Shown here one piece after another: positions 2,795 through 50,427 of a stretch of DNA of 64,000 nucleotides; the first letter of the stretch is position 1, and the number at the start of each line of letters is the position of its first letter. The notes beneath the pieces were generated by a model. That model made no database searches, was not told the origin of the DNA, and saw nothing but the letters and a program-made list of their open reading frames with translations. The stretch is taken from positions 130,423 through 194,422 of the forward strand of contig CAZLJP010000002.1 in assembly GCA_964559915.1 (NCBI GenBank), written 5' to 3'. Both the position numbers and the translations under genes were made by a program. The DNA comes from an uncultured Candidatus Saccharibacteria bacterium (lineage in GTDB: Bacteria; Patescibacteriota; Saccharimonadia; Saccharimonadales; JALRHH01).

Positions 2795-2822
2795 TGCTGC
2801 CTATTATCGTATAATCCTAGTA

Positions 2823-7889: not shown

Positions 7890-7995
7890 TCATCCTCCTC
7901 ATGTACTTGCGGTAATACTACCACAGATAGAAATTGCGTTCAAACCTAAAGGCTTGACCACCTTCATTTCAAAGCCTGAAAGGATTTATCTGAAA

Positions 7996-9219: not shown

Positions 9220-9295
9220 TGTGTGTTATATCCCCCGTCAATTTGAACCACCTCATTATACATGCACAAGCATGATGTTCGCCATTATTGTGGGA

Positions 9296-10444: not shown

Positions 10445-10586
10445 ATGATACCACAGCTTATGCTTAATTTCAACCTCAAGCTTGAGGTTCCCGTGTATTG
10501 GGCTAGGCCAGAATACACCAACCAACACACTGAAAAAGAGAGATATTTAACATAACCACGATTATCCCTGCCTCGGTTTCAGAAAT

Positions 10587-11549: not shown

Positions 11550-12238
11550 AAACTGCCCGCCTCTTTGTATTCCGCATTGGCACGGTCACTTACTACACGA
11601 CCATCTTCGATAGTTATAACGCGGCGCTTCAGCTTGTTGACGATTTCTATATTATGCGTGGTAAGCAGCACCGTGGTGCCATACCTATTAATCTTCTCTA
11701 GAATCTTGATGATATCCCAGGCGTGCTTGGGGTCAAGGTTACCTGTCGGCTCATCGGCAATCAGGATTTTGGGTTGGCGCACAATTGCACGAGCAATTGC
11801 CACACGCTGGCGCTCACCACCAGACAGTTCCTGCGGCATGCGCTTTTCTTTACCCTTAAGACCAACTATATCCAATACACGAGGTACGGTGTGTTCAATC
11901 TCTTTATTGCCAAAGCCCACAATCTCTAGCGCAAACGCCACGTTTTCATACACATTACGATTACGCAGCAGCTTAAAATCTTGGAACACCACACCAATCT
12001 TGCGACGCAGCAGTGGAATATCTTTATCCTTGAGCTTGTCGTAGTCGATACCACCAATCACGATTTTGCCACTGGTTTGGCGCTCTTCCCTAGTCAAAAG
12101 TTTAAGCAGTGTGGATTTACCCGCACCCGATTTACCGATAATAATGACAAATTCCTTGGGCTCCACGTGCAAACTCACGCGGTCCAACGCGGCGTTACTG
12201 CTATTGTAGCTTTTTGTTACCCTATCTAATAAGATCAT
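11546..12238 (-). CDS. ftsE: cell-division ATP-binding protein FtsE
   Basis: 230 aa with Walker A GKSGAGKST, ABC signature LSGGERQR and Walker B ILIADEPTGNLD. Confidence 0.9.
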   Translation of the reverse strand: MILLDRVTKSYNSSNAALDRVSLHVEPKEFVIIIGKSGAGKSTLLKLLTREERQTSGKIVIGGIDYDKLKDKDIPLLRRKIGVVFQDFKLLRNRNVYENVAFALEIVGFGNKEIEHTVPRVLDIVGLKGKEKRMPQELSGGERQRVAIARAIVRQPKILIADEPTGNLDPKHAWDIIKILEKINRYGTTVLLTTHNIEIVNKLKRRVITIEDGRVVSDRANAEYKEAGSL

Positions 12239-24988: not shown

Positions 24989-26518
24989 TCACTTCTCTAG
25001 ACGAAGGCGAGATAATAACCAATCACGTGGCAAAATACTAAGGAACCAGCCGGCACGCGGACCCGATGTCTGACCGATGGTCAAACGATACAAGGCCTGG
25101 AACAAGTCCTTTGGCCCAAGCTCATCTGATTTGAAATCATAAATCGCAAGGTGAAACCAGCCACCATCTGCATCGTCAGGAGCTTCAGCGATTTTGTCTG
25201 CCAGGCCGACAAAGAAGGCTTTTTCAGTATCAGTGAAAGCAGCCGCATCAATGGTATCCTGTAATGCAAACTTCACATCATCGGGTGCGTAATCTTGCAG
25301 CCATGCATCAATAAATTGCAGCTCACGTCGAATAATATCAGCTTCTTCTCGGGCTACGTCTGCATACTCCGTACGAGCTATAACTTCAATTGTTTTATCC
25401 GCGTCTTTCAGGGCAGCCTGATAACTGGCGACGAGATGCGTGAATGGTATGCGACTAACGGTTGGCGTATCAATGCCCTCTAGGCAGATAGCGAGCATCT
25501 GTTGCTCACTAGGTGTCTTTTCCGGCTTAGCCAGAAGTTCGCTAAACTCATCAAACAGCTTGATTAGACTGATGTCGGTATCAAAAAATAACTGTTTTGA
25601 TGGACTGTATCGCACCATAAAAAACCACACCAGCTCAGGCGGGAAAACACGTGTCAAATCAACGGCCGTGATTGTATCACCACCACTTTTACTCATCTTC
25701 TTAGTATTACCGGTCTTGTTTATGAAGTCATATGGGATAGGATACGGCGCATCAACACCATATACCTGCTTAGCAATTTCCAGGCCCGTATCATAAGAGC
25801 CGCCTTTGGTAGCATGATCACGACCAAATGGCTCCGCTTGTACATGTAGCAGCGACCAGCGCGCCGGCCAGTCTATGCGCCAGTTTAGTGTAACTTCACC
25901 GTGAGCATAGTTGGCATTTCGTGGCTGGCCATTCTTATCTTCATATGTGATTTCCTGGGTATCTTTTTGGATACTTATGAATCGGCGATTTTTCAGATAA
26001 CCGTCTTCTATAACTTGTATCGGTGACCACTGCTGATCGAGTTTGCGGCCTGAAACGTCTTCTAGAATATGCTTGATGGTGTCGATGTTGCCTAATGCCT
26101 GTTCTATGACTGATACAAAATAACCACTGCGATATTTTTCGTGAGCTCTGATGATTTCCATGTTAACCTTTAGAGTCTGAGCAACTTCAGGCAATTCTGC
26201 AACATAGTAATCAGCGTAGCTTTGATTAGAACCATCTGGCGCTGGGATATCACAAAGTGGCTTCCCTAGATATTGGCTATAACTTTCGTCCAAACCAACA
26301 GGGACTTTTCGGAATACATCAATATCATCCGATACATGAATATGAGGAGCGACTCGGCCACGGCGACGTAATTCGCGCGCAACCAATTCAGCTGTTAATA
26401 CCTCACGCAGTGTTCCTACATGATAAGCCCCAGAGGGCGAAACGCCCGAAGACACTACAATATCGCCCTCAGGATGTCGGGCGATGAGTGCATCTACGAT
26501 AGTATTAAGCCACTGCAT
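24989..26518 (-). CDS. lysK: lysine--tRNA ligase, class I
   Basis: 509 aa with a Rossmann-type class I signature: SPSGAYHVGTLREV (HIGH-like) and KMSKSGG (KMSKS). The length and layout match archaeal/spirochaete-type LysRS. Confidence 0.85.
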   Translation of the reverse strand: MQWLNTIVDALIARHPEGDIVVSSGVSPSGAYHVGTLREVLTAELVARELRRRGRVAPHIHVSDDIDVFRKVPVGLDESYSQYLGKPLCDIPAPDGSNQSYADYYVAELPEVAQTLKVNMEIIRAHEKYRSGYFVSVIEQALGNIDTIKHILEDVSGRKLDQQWSPIQVIEDGYLKNRRFISIQKDTQEITYEDKNGQPRNANYAHGEVTLNWRIDWPARWSLLHVQAEPFGRDHATKGGSYDTGLEIAKQVYGVDAPYPIPYDFINKTGNTKKMSKSGGDTITAVDLTRVFPPELVWFFMVRYSPSKQLFFDTDISLIKLFDEFSELLAKPEKTPSEQQMLAICLEGIDTPTVSRIPFTHLVASYQAALKDADKTIEVIARTEYADVAREEADIIRRELQFIDAWLQDYAPDDVKFALQDTIDAAAFTDTEKAFFVGLADKIAEAPDDADGGWFHLAIYDFKSDELGPKDLFQALYRLTIGQTSGPRAGWFLSILPRDWLLSRLRLEK

Positions 26519-27108: not shown

Positions 27109-28359
27109 CTACAACAGTGTTCTGTGTAATTCGTCCTGACTCAGCATTTGTGCCTCATCGGCTGTTCGTGCTTTCAGCTCATACTTGCCGCTTACTACCG
27201 TCTTGTCACTCACCACGAGCCTGTATGGGATACCGAGCAAGTCAGCATCTGCAAACTTCTCCCCTGGACGAATATCACGGTCATCATATAGTACCGTAAT
27301 ACCTGCCTCAGTCAAGCTATCATAGAGCTTGTCGGCAGCGGATACCGTATCTGGCGTATTACCCAGCAGCGCTAGATAGACTTTGAATGGCGCAATGTTT
27401 TCTGGCCAGACGAGGCCCTTATCATCAGAAAAGTGTTCGGCAATCATGCCGATAAGACGGCTCACACCGATACCATAGCAGCCCGCAATTATTGATTGCT
27501 GCTCGCCATTCTCATCAGTGTAATACACGCCAAGTGCATCAGTATATTTAGACTCTAGCGGAAAGATATTACCCACTTCTACCGCACGCTTTTCAACGAG
27601 GTCTTCCTTTTTCAGATTCATTTTCTTCAGGTTTTCGTCTGTGTAGACCTCTTTGTTAACAGCGAGCCGTTTAGCCTCATCAACATATATCGTATCTTCG
27701 CCAACGTCACTCAAAGTCTGATACTCGTGGCTAAACTGTGAGGTAAAAATACCGCCATCAGCATAGGTTCTGTAGGTAAAATCACCAAGACCCAGTCGGT
27801 CAAAGACCTTGGTGTAGGCTATTGCAATCTGCTCATAGATTTCCTGATGTTCTGCTTGATTACGGGCAAAACTATACATATCCTTCATGAGAAATTCACG
27901 ACCACGTAGCAAGCCGCTTTTAGCACGCAGTTCGTTGCGGAATTTAGTTTGAATCTGATAGACAGACATTGGTAGGTCTTTATAGGAATTGATAAAGTCG
28001 CTGATGGCATCCACAATTGGCTCTTCGTGAGTAAGCCCCATCCCGAGTTCAGTACCATTAGCTAATTTAGTCTTGAACCAATTATCAACCTTGGCATCAT
28101 CCCAACGGTCTGTTTTCTCAAATATCTCTTTAGGCTGCAAAGTTGTCATCTGTAGTTCTTGGCCACCGACTGCATTCATTTCTTCACGGATAATATGAGA
28201 AATATTATCAAGTACACGTTTGCCAAGCGGCAAAAATGCATAAACGCCAGACATTTCCTTGTGAATAAAACCAGCTCGAATCAAAAGCTGGGCATTTCTA
28301 GCCGTTTCATCAGCTGGCGCTTCTTTACGTGTTTTGGTGAATAATTGTGTTCGTCTCAT
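27109..28359 (-). CDS. proS: proline--tRNA ligase, bacterial type without INS editing domain
   Basis: 416 aa. The bacterial ProRS N-terminus (MRRTQLFTKTRKEAPADETARNAQLLIRAGFI) and class II motifs (FRNELRAKSGLLRGREFLMKD; GCYGIGVSRLI) are present. Only about 60 residues lie between motifs 2 and 3, where the ~180-aa INS domain normally sits. Confidence 0.88.
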   Translation of the reverse strand: MRRTQLFTKTRKEAPADETARNAQLLIRAGFIHKEMSGVYAFLPLGKRVLDNISHIIREEMNAVGGQELQMTTLQPKEIFEKTDRWDDAKVDNWFKTKLANGTELGMGLTHEEPIVDAISDFINSYKDLPMSVYQIQTKFRNELRAKSGLLRGREFLMKDMYSFARNQAEHQEIYEQIAIAYTKVFDRLGLGDFTYRTYADGGIFTSQFSHEYQTLSDVGEDTIYVDEAKRLAVNKEVYTDENLKKMNLKKEDLVEKRAVEVGNIFPLESKYTDALGVYYTDENGEQQSIIAGCYGIGVSRLIGMIAEHFSDDKGLVWPENIAPFKVYLALLGNTPDTVSAADKLYDSLTEAGITVLYDDRDIRPGEKFADADLLGIPYRLVVSDKTVVSGKYELKARTADEAQMLSQDELHRTLL

Positions 28360-31221: not shown

Positions 31222-31785
31222 TTAAACTGTGAGAATCTCTGCTTCTTTGGTCTTGGCAGCTGCTTCGGCCTTCGTCTTATATTGAGCCATGTTATCGTCA
31301 GTCTGTTTTTGAAGCCGCTTAGCCTCATCTTCGCCAATTTCCTTAGCCTTTTTACCTGCATCGACAGCATCCATTGCCTCACGGCGAATATTGCGCAGCG
31401 CAACCATACAGTCTTCGAGCTTGCCACCCACTACCCTTACGTATTCACGACGACGCTCTTCATTAAGCGGTGGGATTGGCACACGCACTACGCGGCCGTC
31501 ATCTGATGGGTTGAGACCCAGTGATGGATTATCACGAATAGCGCTGGTAATAGCCTGGATATTAGTTGGGTCAAAAGGAGTAATCTGCAGTAGCTGCCCT
31601 TCCGGTGCAGATACATTGCCCACCTGGTTGAGTGGCATTTCTACGCCATAGGCAGACACCACAATGCTATCAAGCATGCTCGGATGGGCACGACCTGTGC
31701 GCACCTTTTTGAGGTCTTCTTCAAAATGGCTGATTGCGGCCTGGAATTTACTATCTGCGTCGTTTACTGCCTGTACGGGGTTCAT
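31222..31785 (-). CDS. frr: ribosome recycling factor
   Basis: 187 aa with the typical Frr pattern (LKKVRTGRAHPSMLDSIVV, IPIPPLNEERRRE). Confidence 0.93.
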   Translation of the reverse strand: MNPVQAVNDADSKFQAAISHFEEDLKKVRTGRAHPSMLDSIVVSAYGVEMPLNQVGNVSAPEGQLLQITPFDPTNIQAITSAIRDNPSLGLNPSDDGRVVRVPIPPLNEERRREYVRVVGGKLEDCMVALRNIRREAMDAVDAGKKAKEIGEDEAKRLQKQTDDNMAQYKTKAEAAAKTKEAEILTV

Positions 31786-31851: not shown

Positions 31852-31880
31852 TTGTCATTTTGTACTATTTGTGCTATTGT
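31852..31880 (+). promoter_or_regulatory. sigma-70-like promoter (extended -10) for the PL7 gene
   Basis: TTGTCA (31852-31857), a 17-nt spacer, then TGC-TATTGT (-10 at 31875-31880, preceded by TG). It lies 27 nt upstream of the ATG at 31907. Confidence 0.4.
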
Positions 31881-31906: not shown

Positions 31907-34159
31907 ATGGCAACAAATCAAACAGAACAAGATCAAAACCTCTCAGAAAACCAAGTACTAGACGAAATTATTGGGCAAAAGCACGGTGGCGCCTACCATA
32001 ACAGTTACGATACCTATGGCTACGAAGGCCAGAGTCTTTTCCAGCGCTATATTTCTGCCCTGGGGTCGCGACAGCCTGTGGCAATTGCAATCACCCTCGT
32101 ACCCGTTGCAGTCATTATATTAAGCCTAGCGTTAGCGAGTGGTGGCAAACGCTCCAACACAGAAGAAACTCCAACCGACACGCCACTTTCTAGTGCAGCA
32201 TCAACTGACAGCAGTGATTTTACCCAAATCACACGAATAAATGATGGTTTTGGTAATACAGAAAGTAGCTCAGACACCACCAGCAGCTCTGGTAGCACTA
32301 CAACCGAGACTACACTCATCAACACCCCGTCGACGAGTACATCTGGTAGTTCGACACCGACGAGTACGTCCACTACACCCACAAGTACTCCAACAACGAA
32401 TACAAACCAGAATACATCTTCTAATCCTCCTCAAAACACCGTTACCGTCCCCCCTATTAAAGATGTAATTCCGAATGTGCCAGCCATCCCAATTATCAAG
32501 CAACTGAAGCTCGGTAAACTATGTAGTATTACTGGTGCCGGGCTCAATGAAGCCAGCGGACTCGCCTCAAGCATGAAGCACCCCGGAGTGGTATATACGC
32601 ACAATGATGAAGCCGGAGATGTTCTTGCGGTCCGAACCAGTGATTGTAAGGTTGTTGCCAGAATCACCATCAGTAAATTCCGCGGTGGCAAGCTTGCCGA
32701 CCCAGAAGCTATCAGTATCGACCACAAGACCGGCAAGGTATGGCTTGGCGATATCGGCAACGGACACCCAGGCCAAACAAAGGCTATGACCGATAAAGAC
32801 CTGGCTCTTAAAGACCCTGGTGCTGCTGCTCGAATCATTACCTTTGACGAACCCAGCAAGCTAAGTGGAAAAATTAAGGCCCCTAACGAGAAGAGCTACG
32901 ACATTACCTACCAAGGCGGCATGCAGAACTCTGAAGCACTACTTGTTAACCCAAAGACCGGCCAAGGCTATCTTATTAACAAGCAGCCCACCAGCACCGT
33001 TTACAAGCTTCCTAACCCGCTCAAGGCTGGCGAGGCAAAGAATACTAACGTAAAGATTTCTGGCTACGTCACTGACGCAACCTTTACGAGCGACGGTAAA
33101 TATATATTGGTACGCTACAGGACCGAGAAAGACCCTGCGCCTAAAATCGTCTATGTCTATGACGCTAACTGGAAACAAGTTGGCAAGATTACAGTTCCCA
33201 AAGTAAAACAAGGCGAATCAATAACAGCCGACACAGAGCGTGCCTCGTTTGTAATCGGCAGTGAGGGCGAAAACTCACCACTGGTTCGTATTGCACTTCC
33301 TTCTAAGTTTGGCGGCGGACAACTGGCTACGGCAGTAAAAGATGTATGTAAGAACATGGCTGGTACTCAAACCTCAGTGCCATCAGGATATACACAGAAT
33401 AGTGCCGGTAGCTGCGTAAAGAAGGCTACTACTTCAACACCAGGAGCACCCGCTACTACTACTGTTGGTGCAGTTAACCTAAAGAATTGGAAACTCACCT
33501 TGCCTGTCGGTAAGTCAGGTGACCCAACAGAGATTAAAAATACAAACTTGGCAACCTACAAAAACGCGCCGTGGTACAGCAGACTCAGCGATGGTCAAAC
33601 CATCTTCTATGTTGATTCTAAACGAGCTACTGCGACTACTTCTAACTCCGACAACCCTCGCAGTGAGCTACGTGAGATGAGCGGCAGCAAAGAAGCATCA
33701 TGGAGCTCAACCAGCGGCACACACCAGCTACTCACCAGACTGAAGGTTACTCAGCTGCAAGGTACGAGTGCGGGTGGTAAAACATTCGGCGTTGTAATTT
33801 CACAGATTCATGATGCCAATGACGACGTAACCGTGTTTAGGCTTGAGGGCAAGAAACTATGGGTTACCAAGGGAGACGAGCCCCACGGTTATCTAGTGGA
33901 TGGCAACGTCAAGATTGGCCAGATTATTACTGTGGGCTTCAAAGTAGAAAAGGGAGTAACCCGTTACTACTACAGCAACACTGGCTCAATGAGTCCATCA
34001 TTAATTAGCTATTCCCTAAAACAGAGTTACAGTGGTGGCTATTTCAAGGCGGGTAACTACTGTCAGTGTGGTGGTGGCCGCACTGGCAAGACCAAGATAG
34101 TGATTAGCGGTCTGGGCGTTACGCATAATGGCAAACTACCAGATATTGGCGGCAACTAG
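31907..34159 (+). CDS. membrane-anchored surface protein: Ser/Thr-rich linker, beta-propeller-like middle domain, C-terminal polysaccharide lyase family 7 (alginate-lyase-like) domain
   Basis: Start trimmed to ATG 31907 (MATNQTEQ...), because the track start at 31664 overlaps frr. It has a TM segment (VAIAITLVPVAVIILSLALA) and an S/T/P linker (TTSSSGSTTTETT...TPTSTSTTPTSTPTT). The C-terminal ~230 aa carry PL7 signatures NPRSELRE, VISQIHD and GGYFKAGNYCQ. Confidence 0.7.
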   Translation: MATNQTEQDQNLSENQVLDEIIGQKHGGAYHNSYDTYGYEGQSLFQRYISALGSRQPVAIAITLVPVAVIILSLALASGGKRSNTEETPTDTPLSSAASTDSSDFTQITRINDGFGNTESSSDTTSSSGSTTTETTLINTPSTSTSGSSTPTSTSTTPTSTPTTNTNQNTSSNPPQNTVTVPPIKDVIPNVPAIPIIKQLKLGKLCSITGAGLNEASGLASSMKHPGVVYTHNDEAGDVLAVRTSDCKVVARITISKFRGGKLADPEAISIDHKTGKVWLGDIGNGHPGQTKAMTDKDLALKDPGAAARIITFDEPSKLSGKIKAPNEKSYDITYQGGMQNSEALLVNPKTGQGYLINKQPTSTVYKLPNPLKAGEAKNTNVKISGYVTDATFTSDGKYILVRYRTEKDPAPKIVYVYDANWKQVGKITVPKVKQGESITADTERASFVIGSEGENSPLVRIALPSKFGGGQLATAVKDVCKNMAGTQTSVPSGYTQNSAGSCVKKATTSTPGAPATTTVGAVNLKNWKLTLPVGKSGDPTEIKNTNLATYKNAPWYSRLSDGQTIFYVDSKRATATTSNSDNPRSELREMSGSKEASWSSTSGTHQLLTRLKVTQLQGTSAGGKTFGVVISQIHDANDDVTVFRLEGKKLWVTKGDEPHGYLVDGNVKIGQIITVGFKVEKGVTRYYYSNTGSMSPSLISYSLKQSYSGGYFKAGNYCQCGGGRTGKTKIVISGLGVTHNGKLPDIGGN

Positions 34160-34179
34160 CCTACTCTTCTAGCTACATT

Positions 34180-34207
34180 AAAATAGCCCCGTAATCGGGG
34201 CTATTTT
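34180..34207. terminator. bidirectional intrinsic terminator between the convergent PL7 gene and tsf
   Basis: Perfect 12-bp stem AAAATAGCCCCG / CGGGGCTATTTT with loop TAAT. The A-run and T-run are built into the arms. Confidence 0.8.
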
Positions 34208-34233
34208 AATTATCGGGGCTGGAGGGGTTGCCT

Positions 34234-34833
34234 TTAGGCGACTTCACCCAACGCGATACGGTTGAAACGACGTACTACGACATTTTCGTTCATCAATGCA
34301 GCTTGCTGTTTTACATAATCGGCCACAGTCTGGTCTGGATTCTTGATATATGGCTGGTCAAGCAGACAAAGCTCTGCAAAATATTTCTTGAGCTGCCCTT
34401 CTACAATCTTGTCAGCCATATCTGCTGGCTTGCCTTTGAGTGCATCACCGGCAAGCAATTCCTGCTTTTTTGCCTCACGAACATCCGCAGGAATATCGTC
34501 AGATGAAACGTAGGCCGGTGCTGATGCAGCAATATGCATTGCAACATCCTTTACTAGCCCGCCAAAGATTTCGCCACGAGCCACAAAGTCGGTCTCGCAG
34601 TTAACCTCTACCAATACGCCAATGCGACCGTCGTGATTGTAGGTGCCGATTACGCCTTCGCGTACTTCGCGTTCACCACGCTTTTCGGCCTTGGTAAGTC
34701 CCTTTTTACGCATAGCTTCTAGCGCCTTGTCGAAGTCGCCTTCAGCCTCTACTAGCGCAGCCTTAGCATCAGTGATACCAACACCCGTTAACTCGCGTAA
34801 TCGCTTAATTTCTTCAATACTTATCTCTGCCAT
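34234..34833 (-). CDS. tsf: translation elongation factor Ts (short form)
   Basis: 199 aa with the N-terminal UBA-like IKRLRELTGVGITDAKAALVEAEGDFDKALEAMRKKG. Its start overlaps the rpsB stop by 1 nt. Confidence 0.9.
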   Translation of the reverse strand: MAEISIEEIKRLRELTGVGITDAKAALVEAEGDFDKALEAMRKKGLTKAEKRGEREVREGVIGTYNHDGRIGVLVEVNCETDFVARGEIFGGLVKDVAMHIAASAPAYVSSDDIPADVREAKKQELLAGDALKGKPADMADKIVEGQLKKYFAELCLLDQPYIKNPDQTVADYVKQQAALMNENVVVRRFNRIALGEVA

Positions 34834-35564
34834 TACTTCTCTTCCTTGTCTGTTTCTGGCTGCTTCTTAGCATAGCTCGCAGTACCAGCTGATAATGCGC
34901 TGCCAACATAGTCTGCAATCAGTTGCAGGGTCTTGATTGCGTCATCATTACAGGGCACGGGATATGCAACCTGACTTGGGTCAGCATTGCTATCTACCAG
35001 GGCAACTACTGGTATACCCAGCTTGTTAGCCTCACGGACTGCATTTACATCGTGGATGATATCGAATACAAAGACTGCACCTGGCTTAGCGGCAAGGTCT
35101 TTGATACCACCGTAGATGTGGTTCATTTCATCAATTTCTTCCTGGAAACGCTGAACCTCAAGCTTGTTGTACTTGCTTGCCAACTGACCAGTTTCCATCT
35201 TGGATTCTAGGTCCTTGAGGTGCTTGATACGGCCACCGATAGTGTTACGGTTGGTCATCATACCACCGAGCCAACGCTCCACCACGTATGGTTGGTTGTT
35301 GTCTTCGGCGACTTTCTTAGCAATGCCATGGACTTGGCGCTTAGTACCAACAATCAGTACTTGCTTGCCAGCGGCTGCTGTTTCCTGCAAGAACTCTAGA
35401 GCAATTTCTAAGCTACTGACCGTCTTAGTTAGGTCAATAATGTGGCTGCCACCGCGTTTGCTGTGGATGTACTGAGCCATCTTAGGGTGCCAGCGGCTGG
35501 TCTTGTGACCAAAGTGCGCGCCCGCTTCTAATAGTTTTTTAATATCAACATCAACTGATGCCAT
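34833..35564 (-). CDS. rpsB: 30S ribosomal protein S2
   Basis: LLEAGAHFGHKTSRWHPKM is the S2 signature. The start is trimmed to ATG 35562-35564 (MASVDVDIKKLL), because the 29-aa track extension has no S2 counterpart. Confidence 0.93.
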   Translation of the reverse strand: MASVDVDIKKLLEAGAHFGHKTSRWHPKMAQYIHSKRGGSHIIDLTKTVSSLEIALEFLQETAAAGKQVLIVGTKRQVHGIAKKVAEDNNQPYVVERWLGGMMTNRNTIGGRIKHLKDLESKMETGQLASKYNKLEVQRFQEEIDEMNHIYGGIKDLAAKPGAVFVFDIIHDVNAVREANKLGIPVVALVDSNADPSQVAYPVPCNDDAIKTLQLIADYVGSALSAGTASYAKKQPETDKEEK

Positions 35565-35703: not shown

Positions 35704-36375
35704 CTACTGGTTCTCTAAGCCTTCGATGACCGCCAGGTATTCTACATTGTCACTTGGGCTCGCTGTATCATAATAAGCGCGTAGCACTAAATCTTCAGAG
35801 TCATTGTCATAGTAGACTTTTGCGGAAACACCTTTTATATCTTCCGTCGAGGCGATGTACACATTGAGGTTGTCGGTATTCAAGTTATCACGATTAATGT
35901 GCTGCAACACCGTGTCATCGTATTTTGCTTTCTCGGTGGTCGTTGTCCCCGGTGTAGGTACTAGGCTTATGCCTCTGCCTAATGGCAGCATAAACAACCC
36001 GCCAGAACTACGTTTATGAGTCTTCTCCGTATCAACAGTAAATGTCTCTTCCTTGATTACACTCGAAGAGTCTGCATTGGGCTCATAGACCATATGAGCA
36101 GCTGCAACCTGCTCGTCTGTAAAGTCCAGCCCCTTGATTGTTACTCTCTCGCCTGATGCAAGAGTCAGATGCGTGCCTTGCTTCTTTAGCATGTCCTTTG
36201 TTTCAAGACGAATTTCTTGAGCCTGGTGGTTGTCTTCTATCTTTTCATGGATTCCAGCGCCAGCAAGGCCCGCCACCATTAGTCCAAGAGCCGCCAATCG
36301 GCCGGAAGCCCTTGGCTCTCTTGCTTGAGATGTATTATTTTTTTCAAAAGTTTCGTGATTATTTTTGCTACGCAC
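35704..36375 (-). CDS. hypothetical N-terminally anchored exported protein
   Basis: 223-aa ORF with one TM segment (LAALGLMVAGLAGAGI). The remainder is hydrophilic with no motif I recognise. Confidence 0.45.
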   Translation of the reverse strand: MRSKNNHETFEKNNTSQAREPRASGRLAALGLMVAGLAGAGIHEKIEDNHQAQEIRLETKDMLKKQGTHLTLASGERVTIKGLDFTDEQVAAAHMVYEPNADSSSVIKEETFTVDTEKTHKRSSGGLFMLPLGRGISLVPTPGTTTTEKAKYDDTVLQHINRDNLNTDNLNVYIASTEDIKGVSAKVYYDNDSEDLVLRAYYDTASPSDNVEYLAVIEGLENQ

Positions 36376-40245: not shown

Positions 40246-41013
40246 TTATACTGTTTTGTCACCCCAGTCAGAGAAGACCAGGATTACCACAATCACAGCA
40301 AACATAATGAACATCACTTGCCGCTTTACCAAATCAGTCAGACGGTCTGACTCATCCAGATAGTACATGCCGGCAATGCTAAAACCCAGAACTGATGAAA
40401 GTAACGCTGGCTGTGGAATAACACCGTAGAACAACAGCCAATGGCTGAGTAGCCAAGCCAGGGCGGCATTAAAATAGGCCCAGACTTGCGCATACAGCGG
40501 CCCGTATTCATCCTCAAAGCTCGTAAAGAAGTGACGCGCCGAAACATAGGCAATCAACCAGCTGCCCAAGACAATGCCAAAGATTGGTGCCTCCGTCCAG
40601 GCAATATACAGTGCCACTAGACCAAGTGCCTGGCTGATACATGCCTGTACAGAAACAGACAACACGCTGGAACCGGGCTTAATAAAGACTAGCCACACGC
40701 TGTAAGCTGCTGCCCACAGCAGCTGATACATGCCGTTGGTGGTATGATCCATAAAGACAACGACCGATACGCCAACAATAATATCAACTGCGTTAGCAGT
40801 AATATTTGTCAGCCAGTAGCGAGGGCGGACTGCAAACATACGCCACTTGCTTAGGAGAATTAACGCGATTGCCGCTTGTACAAAACCACCTTCTAATCGC
40901 ACTAAGACATAGACAATAACCGGCAAGAAAGTGGTTAACCCTATGTGGAAATAATGCGAATAGCCCTGGGCTGGCTTTATCTTGGTATGAAGTTTACTGG
41001 CTAGTGCTCTCAT
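40246..41013 (-). CDS. hypothetical polytopic membrane protein
   Basis: 255 aa with about 8 hydrophobic segments. It overlaps the upstream LCP gene by 20 nt. No family recognised. Confidence 0.5.
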   Translation of the reverse strand: MRALASKLHTKIKPAQGYSHYFHIGLTTFLPVIVYVLVRLEGGFVQAAIALILLSKWRMFAVRPRYWLTNITANAVDIIVGVSVVVFMDHTTNGMYQLLWAAAYSVWLVFIKPGSSVLSVSVQACISQALGLVALYIAWTEAPIFGIVLGSWLIAYVSARHFFTSFEDEYGPLYAQVWAYFNAALAWLLSHWLLFYGVIPQPALLSSVLGFSIAGMYYLDESDRLTDLVKRQVMFIMFAVIVVILVFSDWGDKTV

Positions 41014-42646
41014 TTTGACCTAGGATTATGACGAACTCAGCACCGTTAGGGTTAATACCATCAGGGAGTTTAGTGGTGGTGGTGACTTTCAATCGCTGCT
41101 CGAGATAGTGTTGGGTGTACTTCTTCTTACCACCCGTCAAATCAACTAACATTGTTTGACTGTAGTTTTTGGTCGGAGCATTTGCAACCGTCGTAATGTT
41201 ATAACCATATGATTTCAAATCATCGGCGCGCCTAGCTGCAAGACCAACAATAGTTGAGCCGTTAAAGACTGCGATAGAAGCATTTTCATTATTAATATAG
41301 CCGTCTTTCAGGGTGTTGCGGACAAAACTATTAATCTGACTGTAATCGAACAGCCCGGCAGCTGGTTGCTGCGTAGACAATCCGTTTATATTACCGCTCT
41401 TAATAAGTACGTTTGGTGGTGTCACCAAATCAAGTGAGCCAATCTTTGTTGAATCAATGCCCTTCATAATATCGTAGACACGCAGGACTTCACCGGTAGA
41501 AAAATTAGATCGTACGTGTGACCCAAATTCATTAACCAGTTGATTAATCTTAACAGGGTTACTGTAAGTTCCGGCGGACATGACTTTGTTCTTGAGCGCT
41601 ATAATAACCGCGCGCTGTCGTTCTGAACGGTCGAAGTCACCACGAGCACTGGTATGACGAGAACGGGCATAGAAGAGTGCACGCTGGCCATCAAAATGAT
41701 TAGGACCTTGTTTTACATCAAGTACATATGGCTTGCCACGGGTTGTGTCGTATAGTCGTTCATAGACCACGCCATTTTTATCAACATTTATATCAATACC
41801 GCCGACAGTGTTAATGGCTTTCTCGAAGGCCGCAAAATCAATCATCACATTATAGTGAATCGGTATACCCGCAACTTCTTCAATCTTTGATTCAATCGCC
41901 GCCAGACCAGCTTGTTCAGCTCGTTCATTGATATCAGAGGTTTTTTTGCCATTTAGTACCTTGTATTTGGCGTTAGCGTAGACCGCATTAATTTTTGATT
42001 GGCCACCATCTGATTTGACCCAGAGGTCACGCGGTATACTCAGCATAGAAGCATTCTTTTGAATGGGATCAATACTTAGTATCAGGATTGTATCTGTTAG
42101 GTCGGCGCCGTCATGGCCAGCACCGCCCTTACCAAGCATCAATACATTCACACGACCGTCACCTTCACCCTTGAGCTTGGTTGGGTCAACATTTGCGTTG
42201 AGGGCTGGTGCACCACCGCCGCCACCGAATATCTTGCGGGCTTTTAGGAAGGCGTTACCAAACATGAAACCGCCGACAAGAACGAACGCGAGGAATATAA
42301 GTGCAACACTCTTAATGATGCGCTTTTTCTTGCGTCGATTTTTGACACCCTTGCGAGCTGATGCAGCTGGCAAATCAAGCTTCATGGCGGCGCCCTCAGT
42401 GGCAGCCATATGAGAAGCTACTGTCTGGGGCACAGGAGTACCTTCTGCCCGTAGCTTGGCTTGGGCATTGGGACGAAAGCCATCTGCTCCCTTGAAACTA
42501 TCAAGCCGTCCGCTGGAATCATGAGCACGCCCAATAGATACCCCCCGATTGGCTCGCGCCTTGGCCTGGCCAGTACCGACAAATCCATCAACCGCCCCAC
42601 TGCGCGGCGTTCTTTGGGACGCCTTAAACTTACGAAAATTATCCAT
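40994..42646 (-). CDS. LytR-CpsA-Psr (LCP) family cell-wall glycopolymer ligase with C-terminal LytR_C-like domain
   Basis: 550 aa with a long basic cytoplasmic N-terminus and one TM segment. The LCP core reads VNVLMLG...DTILILSIDP...ASMLSIPRDLWV...FARSRH...DFDRSERQ. Confidence 0.85.
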   Translation of the reverse strand: MDNFRKFKASQRTPRSGAVDGFVGTGQAKARANRGVSIGRAHDSSGRLDSFKGADGFRPNAQAKLRAEGTPVPQTVASHMAATEGAAMKLDLPAASARKGVKNRRKKKRIIKSVALIFLAFVLVGGFMFGNAFLKARKIFGGGGGAPALNANVDPTKLKGEGDGRVNVLMLGKGGAGHDGADLTDTILILSIDPIQKNASMLSIPRDLWVKSDGGQSKINAVYANAKYKVLNGKKTSDINERAEQAGLAAIESKIEEVAGIPIHYNVMIDFAAFEKAINTVGGIDINVDKNGVVYERLYDTTRGKPYVLDVKQGPNHFDGQRALFYARSRHTSARGDFDRSERQRAVIIALKNKVMSAGTYSNPVKINQLVNEFGSHVRSNFSTGEVLRVYDIMKGIDSTKIGSLDLVTPPNVLIKSGNINGLSTQQPAAGLFDYSQINSFVRNTLKDGYINNENASIAVFNGSTIVGLAARRADDLKSYGYNITTVANAPTKNYSQTMLVDLTGGKKKYTQHYLEQRLKVTTTTKLPDGINPNGAEFVIILGQNESTSQ

Positions 42647-45105: not shown

Positions 45106-48100
45106 TTACCGTACCTGCATCCTTACGCTGTTAATTTGCATAGTAGTGATGGTATTACCATCCTTACAGACCAGACGTACTAGTACCTCGGCTTTAGCAT
45201 CGTTTTCTATCTGGAACCAGTCACTCTTCAGAGCGCCCGTCCTGTCAGTGGCCAGGTTGCCAGTGGCGGTCAGGTCTTGCCAGCTCGGGTTGTTATCGGT
45301 CAGAGCATATTGCAACTTGCAGCTCGCACCTTGTGGTGCGGCAGTACTGATATTTGCCAAGAGCCTTACCTGGTTCGCATTACCCAGATCAACCCATGTA
45401 CGGTGTTCACCTGGCAGCTCAGTCTCATTGGCTGGTTGCTGCCAAGCCAAGGTTTCGCTCGCCAAGCTGTATTCGCTAAAGGCCGTTTGTAGACAATCTT
45501 GCCACTTGTCGTTCTGATAGCAGCGGAACTTATTCATCTTGCTGTTGTAGTACTGCGCACCATTGACTCCGGCTGGATCACCGTCACTGCTCTTGGTATC
45601 CAGGACAAATAGCACTGTTTTGCCATTGTTGCCAGCGCCAATCTTAACCTTGCCAGTGAGAGTATCAACATTAAGCGCGTTATCGCCGTTAGCTGACTTC
45701 ACTGCCAGAGCGTTGGTACTATCGAGTTTCAACTCCAGAGCACCAGAGTTGAACACGGTGAATACACCATTGCCGTCCTTGGTGAGTGTCAGGAGATTTG
45801 CATTGCCGGTGGCGGTCAGGCTGATGGACTGTGCGCCGATTGATGTCACGCCGCTCAGAGCGCCAACACCAGTTATGCCGCCGTTATTGTTACTTAATCC
45901 ACCGACTATTGATGCGCCACCAGAAGTCATGTTCAGGCCAGTTATATTCTGCAGTACACCGGTATTTGTTAGTCGTAGGTCGCCGCCAGTTGTAACACTG
46001 CTGAGTACTGCGTTGCCCTGGCTATCCAGTTTCTTAGCAATCTCGGATGTAGCTTTAAGCGTGTAGATGTTCAAAGCATCGTACCTCACGTGCCAGTAGC
46101 CGTACTCGTCCTGATAAGTTAGTTCTGGGAAGACGGAGCCCAGCTGCTGAGCCAATACACCGGTCTGGTGTTCGGTGTCACAAGAGGTATTTGACTGCTG
46201 GAAGTATGCGTTGTCACAAGCAAAATCGAAGGTTACAGTTTCAATATCTTTAATCTTATCAAGTACGTTGTCGTCGAGTGACAAGATGTTTGTCTTGAGC
46301 CGCTGGTCAGATAGACCAACACCCGAACAAGCACTGTAGCCAGTGATAATACCACCACTCACCACCGCCTGGTTGAGATACTGGTTGTTGCCACAAGTTA
46401 CGGTAATACCACTTACGCCATTTCGCTGGTACACACCAGTGGTGTTGATGTTACCTGATGCCGAGATTGTAGTGATGCCGCTCAGAGCACCAGCCGAGCT
46501 AACATCAAGCCCAGTCGAACTGATTGAGAAGGCATTACTGCCGCCGCCAAGAGTAATCGCTCCTGTACTTGTACCTGTGTTGATATTGACCGCGTTGTTG
46601 GCATTGGTGTTGAAGTTAATAGCACCGACTGCTGTTAGCCCGCCAGTTAGCGATGTTAGACCATTGCTAACGGTCAGCGTATTTGTACCGGTTATAGTTG
46701 TTGCACCGTTCAGAGATATAGCGCCTGTACCGGTACCGAAGGTGCCCGTACCACTGATAGAGAAGTTACCACTGCTCTGTGTAAATCCAGTTATTCCACT
46801 AAGCGCACCACTGTTGATGATTAGGCCGTTGATGGTATTTGTAGCTGTTGCACCGGTGATGGCGCCAGATAAGCTCAACGTTGTTACGCCGCTCAGAGCA
46901 CCAGCAGATGAAACATCAAATGCGGTTGAGTCTATCGTCAGGGCATTGCTGCCACCACCGATTGTAATAGCACCAGTACCTGTTACAGAATGGGCACCAC
47001 TTGTTTGGCTAAATCCTGTGATGCCACTCAAGCTGCCGCTATTGACGCTCAAACCGTTGATAGTATTGGTTGTGTTGGCACTGATGGTACCACTTGCGGT
47101 AACACTGGTGATTCCTGATAGTGCACCAGCAGATGAAACATCGAAGTTGGTCGAATCAATGGTCAGTGCGTTGCTGCCACCACCAAGCGTGATAGCACCG
47201 GTGCCAGTCACCGAGAAGGCACCACTTGTTTGGCTGAAGCCGGTGACAGCGCTCAGACTACCGGCATTGATAATCAGGCCGTTAATGGTGTTGCTGGCAG
47301 TCGGAGCAGAAATAGCACCACTAGCAGATATCGTAGTTGCGCCTGTAATTGCTCCGCTTAGGCCGAGTGAAGTACCGCTAATCGAACCAGCGCCAGTGAT
47401 GTTACCACCGCCGAGCGCCAAGTTGCCACTACTGAAAGTGATGCCCGTCACACCACTTAGTGCACCGCTATTGATGCTGAGGCCGTTAATCGTATTGCTG
47501 GTAGAAGCCGTTATGGAGCCAGAGGCGGTTATAGAAGTTACCCCAGCTAATGAGCCAGCATTGATTATGCCGCCATTTGCCAAGTTCAAGCTGCCGCTCG
47601 TAAATGTCAGGCCAGTGACCCCCGTAATTGTTCCAGCACCAGTGATGCCGCCGCCATTATTCGTGATGCCACCGTTACTAACTATCAGGCCACCGCCGGC
47701 AGTGATTGTTTGAGCGGCAGATGTTTGCAAATTGCCCAATATATTAACAGTTGAAGACGCGTTACCAATACTCAGCGTTGTTGCTGCACCACCAATGTTA
47801 AGCGTAGTCACATTTGTATTGAGCAGGTCAAAGCTGGTAAGGCTCGTTTCTATGCTGTTTTCGTTGTAATAGGTGGTGCCGTTACCGGTTGCGACGCCCG
47901 CAATGAAGTAGCCTCGCCCAAAACGATTTGTCAGTGTCGAACCAGTGTCAGTGCCACCAATCTCGGGGATGTAATACTCTGTCAAGCTTGCACCGTTAGA
48001 CCAAGTCAGATTTGGCGTGATGCTCAGAGCAGAGGCAGTTTTGCTCGTGATTTTGGCATACGTTCCATTAACCAGAACGTAGTTTCCTACATCAAAGTTG

Positions 48101-50427
48101 GCAGTATTGCCCGAACCGACTTGTATAGTGCCTGGCGCCAAGCCACTACCACTAGTGGCGGTTGCAGAGCCATCAAGCTGACGGAAAGTAGTTGTGAGAC
48201 TGCCGTTAGCGTCTATCTTCAACGCATCATTGGTCCCGATGGTAAGCGTGCCGCTCACATCTAAGTCACCACTGAGATTCACGTTATCAAGCAATTCAAT
48301 CGTGCTACCAGCATCCAGTCGAATCTGGCCTGTGCCGGTGAGCGAGATATTGTTATTACTGCCTGTAGTCGTTATCTGTAGTGTGCCACCGTTCGTGACA
48401 AGTGGGGTTGTGACTGAGGTAGCAAAGCTAACAGCAGCCTTGGTATCTAGTGCGTTACAAGTGCCGCCGCTGCCCAGCGTGATAGCATTGCCGGTGCCGC
48501 TCAGGTTGCCCGTGCCACTTGGACATGTGAGCGTTGTATCACCACGAACTGCAGACGTACTTGATGAACCATAGTTGACCGCAAGACCAATACTGCCTGC
48601 GCCATTGGTAATGGTAAGACCGCCACTGTTTGTCAGCCCAGCTAATGTATAGCCCGAACCGTTGCCAATCAGTAACTGGCCGTTTGCAGCTGCGGAACCA
48701 TTTACCCCTGTACCGCCACGAGCCACCCCAAGTGTACCGGTGGTGATAATCGCAGCATCGAGTGAGGTGGTGCCGGCAACCGTTAAGCGACCTTGGGCAT
48801 CAACAGTGAAGGTCGGAATTGTGGTAGTTGAGCCGTAACTACCTGGCGAAACAGCTGTGTTAGCCAGGCCAAGCACGCCAGCATTGTTTGTTAGACCAGT
48901 GCCGGTTAAGTCAGTAAAGCCTTCGCCGTTAATCGTTAGCGTATCGCCTGCGCCAAAGGTAATCCCGCCGTTGGCCGTGATAAGACCTGCTACACCAAGC
49001 GTACCGGTCAGGTTCGCGGTATTACTGATAGTCTGGCCGTTGATTGCACCAGAGGTGGTGAGGGTTGTGAAACTCGGATTAGCACTGAAGTTAATGTTCA
49101 GTGTTCCACCCAGTGCCACACTGCCATCACCGCTCAGATTACTACCATAGTTCAGGTTGATTGAACTGTTCTGCAAAGCAGCATTGGCCAGATTACTAAT
49201 GGCTACGTTGCCGGCAGCTGTCAGGCGACCTTGGGCATCAACCGTAAAGCTCGGTACAGATGTGCTCGAACCATAGCTACCTGCCGAAACAGCGGTATTT
49301 GCTAAACCAAGCACTCCAGCATTATTCACTAGACCGGTACCCGTCAAATCAGTAAAGTTCTCGCCATTGAAGGTGAAGGTGTCACCTGCCTCAAGTGTGA
49401 GACCACCGTTGAGCGTAGTCAGACCAGTTACCGTTAGAGTACCAGTCAGGTTGGCCGTTGCGTCTATGTCCTGGCCGTTGATTGCACCAGATGTGATAGT
49501 GCCGCTGGTGCTCAAATTACCACTGGCATCGATTTGTAGTGCGTCACTTGTGCCGACGGTGAAGAGCGCGGCTGGGGTGGTATCACCCACGCCTATATTG
49601 CCATTGGCCAGTATGGTGAATTTCTCGGTGTTATTGGTTATAAACCGTAGGGCGTAATTATCGGTGGTACCGAGGACACCGTCAGCACCAAAGGTACTAC
49701 CGTTCTGCATGAACGCCAAACCACCACCGCTACAAGTGGTTGTCAAACAGATGGTGCCAGAGGCATCCGGAAGTGTATACGTTCGGTTGTTCGTCAGTGT
49801 GCCAAAGTCCAGCGTACCAGTAAAGCCACCGACTGTTTTTTGTAAATTGGTCGCGGTGGTGGCTATACCGGCCCTCAGCGCATACGGCACCGCCGTTAGC
49901 TTGATACGTGGTGTCATTTCACCGTCACCATTGACGTTCATGGTCAGCCACTTTTCCTGCGACCAATCGATGGTGCCAGAGAACGGTGTCACACTGCCCA
50001 GATTGGCACTGAAGTAACCGTTCTTGACGCTGACCGTCTCTGTTTCGGTCCATTCGTTGGTGCCACTAGTGACTGCGTCGTACAGCTTGAACTGGATACT
50101 GTAACTGCCGTCATCAACCAGTGAACCACCACTGTTCAGCAGACGACCCTGGAAGTTGAGCGTGCTCGATGTAGCCGCATATACGCGCGCACTCTCGCCC
50201 GCGCGCGTATATGAATATACAGTCGCTAACAGGGGTGAAACGACCAAAACAAAAATGACTCCAACCAACCATTGTGTAATGGTGTTTGGAGTCGAGCGTC
50301 TGCGTACTCGCGTATACGCAAAACGTGGCCGTTTATGGCCAAAAATAAGGTCAGTCACCTTGTATTTTTGTTTGTTTTGTTTTTGGTTGTTAGTCGAAGC
50401 AGTAGCCTTTTTGACTATCGTTTCCAC
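45106..50427 (-). CDS. giant membrane-anchored tail-fibre-like surface protein with internal peptidase-S74 (intramolecular chaperone/autoprotease) domain
   Basis: 1773 aa with a basic N-terminus plus TM segment (WLVGVIFVLVVSPLLATV). The N-terminal domain reads LNFQGRLLNSGGSLVDDGSYSIQFKLYDA...TPRIKLTAVPYALRAG, as seen in tail-fibre-domain proteins. Long G/T/S/N-rich beta-repeat arrays follow. The S74 signature GLSDQRLKTNILSL...VTFDF...GVLAQQL is at residues ~1371-1470. Confidence 0.8.
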   Translation of the reverse strand: METIVKKATASTNNQKQNKQKYKVTDLIFGHKRPRFAYTRVRRRSTPNTITQWLVGVIFVLVVSPLLATVYSYTRAGESARVYAATSSTLNFQGRLLNSGGSLVDDGSYSIQFKLYDAVTSGTNEWTETETVSVKNGYFSANLGSVTPFSGTIDWSQEKWLTMNVNGDGEMTPRIKLTAVPYALRAGIATTATNLQKTVGGFTGTLDFGTLTNNRTYTLPDASGTICLTTTCSGGGLAFMQNGSTFGADGVLGTTDNYALRFITNNTEKFTILANGNIGVGDTTPAALFTVGTSDALQIDASGNLSTSGTITSGAINGQDIDATANLTGTLTVTGLTTLNGGLTLEAGDTFTFNGENFTDLTGTGLVNNAGVLGLANTAVSAGSYGSSTSVPSFTVDAQGRLTAAGNVAISNLANAALQNSSINLNYGSNLSGDGSVALGGTLNINFSANPSFTTLTTSGAINGQTISNTANLTGTLGVAGLITANGGITFGAGDTLTINGEGFTDLTGTGLTNNAGVLGLANTAVSPGSYGSTTTIPTFTVDAQGRLTVAGTTSLDAAIITTGTLGVARGGTGVNGSAAANGQLLIGNGSGYTLAGLTNSGGLTITNGAGSIGLAVNYGSSSTSAVRGDTTLTCPSGTGNLSGTGNAITLGSGGTCNALDTKAAVSFATSVTTPLVTNGGTLQITTTGSNNNISLTGTGQIRLDAGSTIELLDNVNLSGDLDVSGTLTIGTNDALKIDANGSLTTTFRQLDGSATATSGSGLAPGTIQVGSGNTANFDVGNYVLVNGTYAKITSKTASALSITPNLTWSNGASLTEYYIPEIGGTDTGSTLTNRFGRGYFIAGVATGNGTTYYNENSIETSLTSFDLLNTNVTTLNIGGAATTLSIGNASSTVNILGNLQTSAAQTITAGGGLIVSNGGITNNGGGITGAGTITGVTGLTFTSGSLNLANGGIINAGSLAGVTSITASGSITASTSNTINGLSINSGALSGVTGITFSSGNLALGGGNITGAGSISGTSLGLSGAITGATTISASGAISAPTASNTINGLIINAGSLSAVTGFSQTSGAFSVTGTGAITLGGGSNALTIDSTNFDVSSAGALSGITSVTASGTISANTTNTINGLSVNSGSLSGITGFSQTSGAHSVTGTGAITIGGGSNALTIDSTAFDVSSAGALSGVTTLSLSGAITGATATNTINGLIINSGALSGITGFTQSSGNFSISGTGTFGTGTGAISLNGATTITGTNTLTVSNGLTSLTGGLTAVGAINFNTNANNAVNINTGTSTGAITLGGGSNAFSISSTGLDVSSAGALSGITTISASGNINTTGVYQRNGVSGITVTCGNNQYLNQAVVSGGIITGYSACSGVGLSDQRLKTNILSLDDNVLDKIKDIETVTFDFACDNAYFQQSNTSCDTEHQTGVLAQQLGSVFPELTYQDEYGYWHVRYDALNIYTLKATSEIAKKLDSQGNAVLSSVTTGGDLRLTNTGVLQNITGLNMTSGGASIVGGLSNNNGGITGVGALSGVTSIGAQSISLTATGNANLLTLTKDGNGVFTVFNSGALELKLDSTNALAVKSANGDNALNVDTLTGKVKIGAGNNGKTVLFVLDTKSSDGDPAGVNGAQYYNSKMNKFRCYQNDKWQDCLQTAFSEYSLASETLAWQQPANETELPGEHRTWVDLGNANQVRLLANISTAAPQGASCKLQYALTDNNPSWQDLTATGNLATDRTGALKSDWFQIENDAKAEVLVRLVCKDGNTITTMQINSVRMQVR
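46480..47700 (-). repeat. in-frame tandem coding repeats (~68-76 aa TINGL units) inside the 1773-aa gene
   Basis: The DNA motif ATTGA...CCGTT(G/A)AT recurs with CCGTT at 46826, 47054, 47279 and 47483 (periods 228, 225 and 204 bp). CCAGCAGATGAAACATC recurs at 46901 and 47126. The protein unit is TNTINGLxxNSGxLSxxTGFSQTSGAxSVTGTGAITxGGGSNALTIDSTxFDVSSAGALSG. Outer boundaries are approximate. Confidence 0.6.

Follow-up and report, generated by a model that had tools for sequence, protein, structure and literature searches.

We analyzed a 64,000-nucleotide stretch of contig CAZLJP010000002.1 (assembly GCA_964559915.1) from an uncultured Candidatus Saccharibacteria bacterium, referred to here as the window, and centered the work on a plus-strand gene at 31907-34159 that we call gene X. 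Its product is predicted to be anchored in the membrane by a single segment and carries, in order, a low-complexity stalk, a β-propeller, a small cysteine-bounded module, and a C-terminal domain of polysaccharide lyase family 7 (PL7). An original prediction, made from the sequence alone, had placed a membrane-anchored PL7 protein at this position between tsf and frr, and the open reading frame (ORF), the match to Pfam family PF08787, and the neighboring genes all agree with it. The coding sequence and the parts of its product are the following.

31907..34159, plus strand: coding sequence of gene X, a 751-codon ORF (750 aa plus stop)
31907..32074, plus strand: N-terminal tail, residues 1-56, ending at 32074; acidic and predicted to be cytoplasmic
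32075..32143, plus strand: single transmembrane segment (putative signal anchor), residues 57-79; the only Kyte-Doolittle peak, with a maximum of 2.85
32144..32488, plus strand: low-complexity linker rich in Ser, Thr, and Pro (S/T/P), residues 80-194; its core, residues 118-185, is 72% S/T/P
32489..33340, plus strand: β-propeller of ~285 aa, residues 195-478, supported by an AlphaFold2 model
33347..33415, plus strand: Cys-bounded mini-module CKNMAGTQTSVPSGYTQNSAGSC, residues 481-503, similar to a module of the database protein P0002
33416..33472, plus strand: short Thr/Pro-rich linker, residues 504-522, read from the translation
33473..34126, plus strand: PL7 polysaccharide lyase domain, residues 523-740, from PF08787 (Alginate_lyase2), the match to PDB entry 1uai, and an AlphaFold2 model
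33659..33676, plus strand: RSELRE motif, in which R585 aligns with Arg146 of the lyase A1-II′
33803..33814, plus strand: QIHD motif, in which Q633 and H635 align with Gln189 and His191 of A1-II′
34040..34066, plus strand: YFKAGNYCQ motif, in which Y718 aligns with Tyr284 of A1-II′

The mechanical ORF of gene X starts already at 31664 and runs across part of frr, a gene of the opposite strand. On sequence grounds, however, the ATG at 31907 is the true start, because the product is then identical to the database protein P0001, its N-terminus aligns with those of its relatives from the first residues, and a conserved promoter (31852-31880) lies inside the longer ORF. P0001 forms a single cluster at 90% identity and is found on three contigs, possibly from one sample set, which lends the only support, of a generic kind, to the idea that the fusion is an assembly artifact or that PL7 serves here as a binding module lacking catalytic activity. 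We regard this idea as very improbable: the reading frame is continuous and its codon usage native, the identical protein is present in an NCBI assembly and in an independent Logan assembly, the four catalytic residues and their flanking motifs are intact and invariant, and the propeller-then-PL7 order recurs in many independent proteins. A homology search with the full-length protein returned five matches only, with words from the low-complexity linker swamping the candidates, and the searches were redone domain by domain, exhaustively for the propeller.

The C-terminal domain matched PF08787 along the entire profile (model positions 1-225 of 225) with 114.2 bits against a curated cut-off of 29.7 (E = 1e-32), far above chance, and matched the sequence of ALY-1, a poly-guluronate lyase of Corynebacterium sp. 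(PDB 1UAI), with an E-value of 2.7e-36. Its AlphaFold2 model, with a predicted local distance difference test score (pLDDT) of 92.8, superposed on 1UAI with template modeling (TM) scores of 0.80 and 0.85, a root-mean-square deviation (RMSD) of 2.5 Å, and 37% identity, and the top 40 or more Foldseek matches to the model were PL7 lyases. The three hallmark motifs that had been read from the sequence, RSELRE, QIHD, and YFKAGNYCQ, lie exactly where they had been placed. The catalytic Arg/Gln/His/Tyr quartet (R585, Q633, H635, and Y718) is complete by alignment to A1-II′, and all four residues are invariant in an alignment of 68 PL7 sequences. A1-II′ of Sphingomonas sp. A1 (PDB 2CWS, 2ZAA), one PL7 alginate lyase of an alginate-assimilating bacterium, is the mechanistic reference for the family; its H191 and Y284 are named in PDB entry titles, and it shares the catalytic four with X at an identity of only ~25%.

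The nearest solved relatives of the X domain are ALY-1 and AlgAT5 (PDB 5ZQI), which share with it the β-jelly-roll fold, the RSELRE/QIH/YFKAGxYxQ motifs, and a similar size. Like them, the domain carries no large lid insertions, which would leave an open, endolytic cleft. ALY-1 and AlgAT5 are small secreted single domains, whereas the PL7 of X forms the C-terminal part of a larger, membrane-tethered chain that also contains a propeller. Other PL7s are modular, with carbohydrate-binding modules (CBMs) as in AlyQ (with CBM32; PDB 5XNR) and in Actinomycetota PL7s with F5/8 type C domains, and in these the accessory module also precedes the lyase. The accessory module of X is a propeller of ~285 aa in a membrane-anchored protein, whereas those of AlyQ and the Actinomycetota PL7s are CBM-type β-sandwiches.

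The AlphaFold2 model of the region between the stalk and the mini-module, built with 99 homologs, is all-β and confident (pLDDT 89.8; predicted TM score 0.89). Foldseek returned propellers only, of which the lactonase Drp35 had the best E-value and the C-terminal domain of YjiK (PDB 3qqz) the best superposition (TM scores 0.60 and 0.70; RMSD 4.2 Å). The model thus supports the earlier suggestion of a propeller-like domain of ~280 aa bearing the motifs NEASGL, HNDEAGD, DPEAISID, and GDIGNG, which we located at 32546-32764. Nine acidic residues form a conserved ring (E215, D234, D265, E267, D282, E343, D390, E437, and E453; alignment columns invariant or at least 90% conserved), and conserved Glu or Asp residues recur at five inner-strand motifs of the form E/D-[AS]-hydrophobic (NEASGL, DPEAISI, NSEALL, TDATFT, and QGESIT). 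Judged from these five motifs and from ~20 strand-equivalents in the model, the propeller is probably five-bladed, with a central face that would be acidic and possibly cation-binding.

Family membership of the propeller is less direct. What it has in common with YjiK (SdiA-regulated, PF06977; PDB 3QQZ) and with the "Phytase-like" family PF13449 is the propeller fold and the conserved Glu/Asp at blade starts; the difference is that the window propeller falls below every Pfam threshold and gave no match to PF13449 or PF06977 at E ≤ 10. In the same test its ortholog P0003 reached 15.7 bits against a cut-off of 27.6. Among the 99 propeller relatives, 28 matched PF13449 weakly (E ≤ 0.01; best 8e-9) and one matched PF06977. 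By sequence, then, the window propeller is a divergent relative of these families and not a demonstrable member. To our knowledge, neither family has an established biochemical function. When PDB sequences were searched with a profile of the aligned propellers, the sole matches were designed repeat propellers, which we judged to be repeat artifacts, and a scan of GTDB genomes with the same alignment gave only three distant loci, all from Actinomycetota.

The propeller and PL7 are coupled repeatedly. Fusions of the two were identified in P0250, P0251, P0252, P0253, P0254, P0259, and P0261, and among the top 150 members of the propeller family, PF08787 was present in 20 of the 44 representatives of at least 450 aa. 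The other partners found among those 44 were the catalytic domains M23, Amidase_2, and CHAP and, in one protein, the peptidoglycan-binding LysM. The propeller preceded PL7 in every fusion whose order was checked (n = 8) and in both cases of adjacent genes, at loci L013 and L017, where a gene for a transmembrane segment and propeller is followed immediately by a separate PL7 gene. At these two loci the products of 7001-9244 (L013) and 1395-3697 (L017) end in the same Cys-rich module of ~60 aa (...LDR.VLT..GKKYCA.R...EC..PK.GYAKFTYI...GDYCGYW), which has no Pfam match and could be a shared anchoring or docking domain. In this lineage the propeller would be a dedicated partner of PL7. Because fusion and adjacency recur and the remaining partners include peptidoglycan hydrolases, we take the pattern as strong evidence of the Rosetta-stone type that propeller and PL7 would act on one target, a cell-envelope polymer.

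Three of the fusions are giant proteins associated with a type IV secretion gene cluster. P0252 (1344 aa; L010 8001-12035) comes from the same genome as the PL7-less ortholog P0003 (GCA_964428995.1), and the order beside dnaA in L010 is TrbL_3, PrgI, a TraC-like gene, a VirB4-type ATPase, P0252, and a lysozyme plus CHAP gene. P0250 (1535 aa; L022 8001-12608) occupies an equivalent full cluster of a further genome, in which TrbL_3, PrgI, TraC-like, and VirB4 genes precede it and a gene for lysozyme or lysozyme/CHAP follows. P0251 (1625 aa; L015 1167-6044) is on a shorter contig, directly upstream of a lysozyme/CHAP gene; apart from these the contig shows one truncated gene upstream, and dnaN and dnaA nearby. 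Two of the giants, P0250 and P0251, have in addition an EEP nuclease/phosphatase domain.

All three giants share with X the propeller-then-PL7 pair, and their propellers are 57-61% identical to that of X. They differ from it in an N-terminal region of ~800-1000 aa (with EEP in two of them) and in their setting, after a VirB4-like ATPase gene (observed in L010 and L022) and before a gene for lysozyme or lysozyme/CHAP, whereas X is free-standing between tsf and frr and comes with an anchor, a stalk, and a Cys module of its own. Among the annotated genes of the window, none for type IV secretion was found. A type IV secretion cluster beside dnaA has been described for Patescibacteria (PMC12102498), in a paper that mentions no lyase or propeller and no giant propeller-PL7 proteins. 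A cultivated Saccharibacterium cannot grow epibiotically without this type IV secretion system, and host glycans were suggested, as a speculation, to be the targets of those essential envelope proteins that have glycan-binding or glycan-degrading domains (PMC10633639).

The N-terminal half of X would place these domains outside the cell. The acidic tail shares the motifs (N/E)(D/Q)VL(D/N)..I and L.QRY with its orthologs and is 35-42% identical to the tails of P0002-P0004 in the alignment. The transmembrane segment is flanked by charges of +2 N-terminally and +2/-3 C-terminally, a weak bias; together with the nature of the downstream domains, it suggests an N-in/C-out (type II) topology. The anchor that had been proposed is present as a single hydrophobic segment, and the accompanying "60-residue" S/T/P linker corresponds only to the core of the linker, which in full spans residues 80-194. 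Between propeller and PL7, X has one copy of the Cys mini-module (~25 aa; pattern C.N..G.Q...P.GY..N..G.C). In P0002 the module occurs in three tandem copies before the propeller (residues ~195-270; blastp 54% over 24 aa, E = 4.5e-5), and from these placements it looks like a mobile spacer module.

Gene X is the sole plus-strand gene between tsf and frr. The minus-strand order has rpsB and tsf on one side of it and frr, uppS, rseP, a CPBP protease gene, proS, greA, and a class-I lysS on the other. The immediate neighbors and the elements flanking gene X are listed below.

31222..31785, minus strand: frr (ribosome recycling factor), the left neighbor; PF01765, 43% identity to E. coli Frr
34234..34833, minus strand: tsf (EF-Ts, 199 aa), the right neighbor; PF00889, followed by rpsB
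34833-35564, minus strand: rpsB, beyond tsf; PF00318
31852..31880, plus strand: promoter found by consensus scan, with -35 TTGTCA (31852-31857), a 17-nt spacer, and extended -10 TGcTATTGT (31872-31880)
34177..34210, either strand: terminator-like hairpin shared by the convergent genes X and tsf, with arms at 34177-34191 and 34196-34210 (ATTAAAATAGCCCCG / CGGGGCTATTTTAAT)

Taken alone, the promoter match occurs at chance frequency. Upstream elements, though, are common to the window and to the orthologous loci L006 and L002: the -35 CTTG(T/C)CA, the extended -10 TGCTAnnnT, and the AAAACAAAnATG element, with AAAACAAA(A/C)ATG. This conservation bears out the claim that the gene has its own promoter-like element. 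Downstream, the hairpin has a stem of 15 bp that is 100% complementary, a 4-nt loop, an A-run on one side, and a T-run on the other, and its folding z-scores against shuffled sequence are -7.1 on the plus strand and -4.0 on the minus strand. A perfect GC-rich stem so flanked, between the stop codons of X and tsf, agrees well with the bidirectional terminator that had been predicted there.

Comparison with relatives changed the view of how the gene came to this position. The original prediction saw X as an insertion at the usual place of pyrH; its location between tsf and frr and its opposite orientation hold, and the insertion is not supported in that form. Loci L006 (encoding P0002) and L002 (encoding P0003) have a plus-strand ortholog in the same tsf|X|frr slot, with the promoter conserved. 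P0002 and P0003 have the N-terminal tail, transmembrane segment, linker, and propeller of X (propellers 60-67% identical) and end right after the propeller, without PL7. The Cys module and PL7 C-terminus are specific to the window genome among the three compared.

Composition also speaks against a recent foreign insertion. The GC fraction of X is 0.482, against 0.474 ± 0.015 for the genes of the window, and the codon-usage distance of the PL7 segment is 0.162, against 0.158 ± 0.028 for size-matched chunks; such native values give no pointer to recent foreign origin, and neither the whole gene nor its PL7 part can be told from the rest of the window by GC or codon usage. A search for flanking direct repeats that would mark an insertion gave only weak, chance-level matches. 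Because PL7-less orthologs hold the same slot and the promoter is conserved, gene X is, on this comparison of sequences, an old resident of a lineage-specific slot, and its C-terminal PL7 would be the new part.

The rpsB-tsf-pyrH-frr order is not found in the window, L006, or L002, in each of which the slot holds the opposite-strand gene. Searches by tblastn with E. coli PyrH gave no match in the window, L002, or L006, and the frr and tsf controls did match. An AA_kinase gene near frr in the relative L023, considered as a displaced pyrH, proved to be proB (glutamate 5-kinase). The window does encode a CTP synthase (6288-7889, minus strand), an enzyme that needs UTP, which bears on the absence of pyrH from its usual slot.

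Relative to L006, the propeller of X is 67% and its N-terminus 44% identical, whereas 10 of 11 flanking housekeeping genes are 75-94% identical, which suggests that X is a fast-evolving resident gene. The eleventh of these, proS (window 27109-28359, minus strand), has a product with 57% identity to its counterpart in the closer relative L006 and 80% to the one in L002, a more distant relative, a ranking opposite to that of its neighbors, which hints at a replacement of proS in L006. Between rpsB and rpmE, an ORF of 223 aa at 35704-36375 (minus strand) has no Pfam match and no counterpart in the syntenic L006 and L002 and may be a lineage-specific addition. In L002, two extra small genes (6854-7877, minus strand; 167 and 172 aa, no Pfam match) lie between frr and the propeller gene, so the content of the slot is variable.

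We traced the origin of the PL7 domain with a neighbor-joining tree of 74 PL7 domains and 100 bootstraps. The best database relatives of the window PL7 are at most 50% identical to it, except the C-terminal PL7 of P0252, which is 65% identical and was recovered only through the exhaustive propeller search. These two domains are sisters in 99 of 100 bootstraps. They fall with P0250, P0251, P0007, and P0012 in a clade found in 96 of 100, in which four of the five partners of the window domain were shown to be propeller-associated, P0012 being the fifth. This clade nests in a group that includes a PL7 annotated "Candidatus Saccharibacteria bacterium", and the PL7s of Actinomycetota lie outside. 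Given that placement and the native composition, we rejected a recent horizontal transfer of PL7 from Actinomycetota.

Homologous exchange with a secretion-cluster paralog was considered as well, for which a recombination breakpoint in the propeller would be expected; none was seen. Compared along its length, the window propeller has the syntenic P0002 (67%) as its nearest relative in 11 of 13 sliding windows, with a tie with P0250 in two more, so that P0002 is closest almost throughout. The most likely course, from parsimony over three genomes, is that PL7, the Cys module, and the short linker accreted C-terminally from a pool internal to the lineage. The alternative is that PL7 is ancestral in the slot gene and was then lost twice.

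Several other features of the window are of separate interest. A Rfam scan of the window matched no RNA family, and no tRNAs were found in it. The class-I lysyl-tRNA synthetase gene (PF01921) is at 24989-26518 (minus strand). A heliorhodopsin gene (PF18761; 22630-23571, minus strand) lies between a gene for a tRNA U5-methyltransferase and msrA; among candidate phyla radiation (CPR) genomes, heliorhodopsin occurs predominantly in Saccharimonadia (PMC9166423). Along with compact gene packing, the type IV secretion cluster beside dnaA in a relative, and the clade in which the PL7 falls, this gene is circumstantial evidence for a freshwater, Saccharimonadia-like member of the Patescibacteria. At 9296-12238 (minus strand), the gene for a CHAP-domain protein of 410 aa adjoins ftsX and ftsE, an arrangement typical of FtsEX-controlled cell-wall hydrolases. 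Three giant minus-strand ORFs are probably surface or adhesin proteins: one of 1773 aa at 45106-50427 with the Peptidase_S74 intramolecular-chaperone domain, as in phage tail spikes, one of 2068 aa at 52586-58792 with Kelch repeats and a reelin sub-repeat, and one of 1515 aa at 59264-63811 with a CBM_4_9 domain.

Taking the architecture, the coupling, and the models together, we consider it moderately probable that X is a surface-displayed, endo-acting uronate-polymer lyase with the propeller as its targeting or co-catalytic partner. The protein would be anchored in type II orientation, N-in and C-out, and its stalk of ~115 S/T/P-rich residues would hold the propeller off the membrane. Beyond the stalk would follow a five-bladed, acid-lined propeller, a small disulfide-type module, and a PL7 domain with intact catalytic residues. 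The PL7 domain would cleave an extracellular uronic-acid polysaccharide by β-elimination through Arg585, Gln633, His635, and Tyr718, most likely endolytically as in its closest solved relative, ALY-1. The propeller would probably serve in recognition of the polymer or of the cell surface, for which it may use bound cations, or would carry out a second step on the same substrate. The likeliest substrate would be an anionic glycopolymer on the envelope, or in the exopolysaccharide (EPS), of the bacterium to which the organism attaches.

We favor the host-directed reading because the secretion-cluster paralogs adjoin wall hydrolases, a cultivated Saccharibacterium requires its type IV secretion system to grow epibiotically, and the gene is dispensable in close relatives and fast-evolving. 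The original prediction had called X a tool for cutting host capsule or EPS. This is plausible and unproven: it draws indirect support from the sister PL7s in type IV clusters beside lysozyme/CHAP genes and from the peptidoglycan-hydrolase partners of the propeller, and the same evidence fits remodeling of the cell's own envelope.

Several considerations weigh against the reading we favor. The topology of X was deduced from a hydropathy plot and a weak charge bias, and the window propeller reaches no Pfam threshold. The PL7 family includes glucuronan lyases as well, so that "alginate" is not established as the substrate of X on the basis of its family. The gain, as opposed to the loss, of PL7 was reconstructed by parsimony over three genomes only. 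A gene of the LytR-CpsA-Psr (LCP) family in the window suggests that the organism has wall glycopolymers of its own, so a self-directed role is possible, and the wall hydrolases associated with type IV secretion in Gram-positive bacteria act on the donor's own wall.

The last two points belong to an explanation that we consider rather unlikely but the most serious competitor, in which the tethered lyase would trim a uronate wall polymer or EPS of its own cell, opening the envelope for pili or secretion or freeing daughter cells, by analogy with the wall hydrolases of Gram-positive conjugation or with alginate-lyase editing of self-made alginate. The hydrolases of monoderm conjugation act on the donor wall, and the sister PL7s of X do lie in type IV secretion clusters beside lysozyme/CHAP genes. 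The LCP protein (40994-42646) belongs to a family that attaches wall glycopolymers, and a membrane tether holds the enzyme at the cell's own surface, yet a stalk of ~115 residues would carry the domains past a thin wall. In a cultivated Saccharibacterium, genes for EPS synthesis are important for growth (PMC10633639). That two close relatives do without PL7 on the slot gene makes a core housekeeping role of this copy unlikely, and X evolves faster than most of its neighbors and varies in architecture, as is typical of interaction proteins.

Nutritional scavenging, in which X would depolymerize environmental alginate-like or glucuronan EPS of biofilms or algae and feed the cell unsaturated uronates, seems to us improbable. 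PL7 enzymes classically serve alginate assimilation, and the closest named homologs outside the CPR are PL7s of soil Actinomycetota fused to CBMs. However, no genes for uronate transport or catabolism were found in the window or in the related loci examined, and an association with secretion machinery and peptidoglycan hydrolases is unlike a catabolic locus. An endolytic, tethered lyase unaccompanied by oligo-uronate lyases would moreover give no usable monomers. On the supporting side, polysaccharide lyases as such are frequent in the CPR, with 80 of 135 genomes encoding them in one study (PMC10031880). The original prediction had also described the organism as having little sugar catabolism; within the 64 kb covered here, this holds to the extent that no uronate-catabolism genes were seen.

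A bolder extension of the host-directed reading, which we offer as speculation and think unlikely to hold in full, is that propeller-PL7 would be a dedicated host-envelope-breaching module of Saccharibacteria-like epibionts. It would recognize and cleave secondary wall polymers that contain uronic acid, of the teichuronic-acid type, or the capsule of Actinomycetota hosts. Its use would be twofold, on the essential type IV secretion apparatus and, in the case of X, in a tethered enzyme that stands free of it, with rapid domain shuffling as host-range adaptation.

The PL7 family and the presence of polysaccharide lyases in CPR genomes are already known (PMC10031880). In the searchable literature, the architecture of X and the recurrent coupling of propeller and PL7, whether as a fusion, as adjacent genes, or as a secretion-cluster giant, appear to be undescribed, and nothing specific emerged from searches that paired Saccharibacteria or CPR with teichuronic acid, alginate lyase, or PL7. 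If the favored reading is true, it would provide candidates for an enzymatic activity and for a class of surface polymer where epibiont and host meet, and a first functional handle on a propeller family with more than 1400 cluster representatives. Gene X would also illustrate the gain of a catalytic module by a surface gene that evolves fast and occupies a lineage-specific slot within an otherwise conserved ribosomal-factor cluster.

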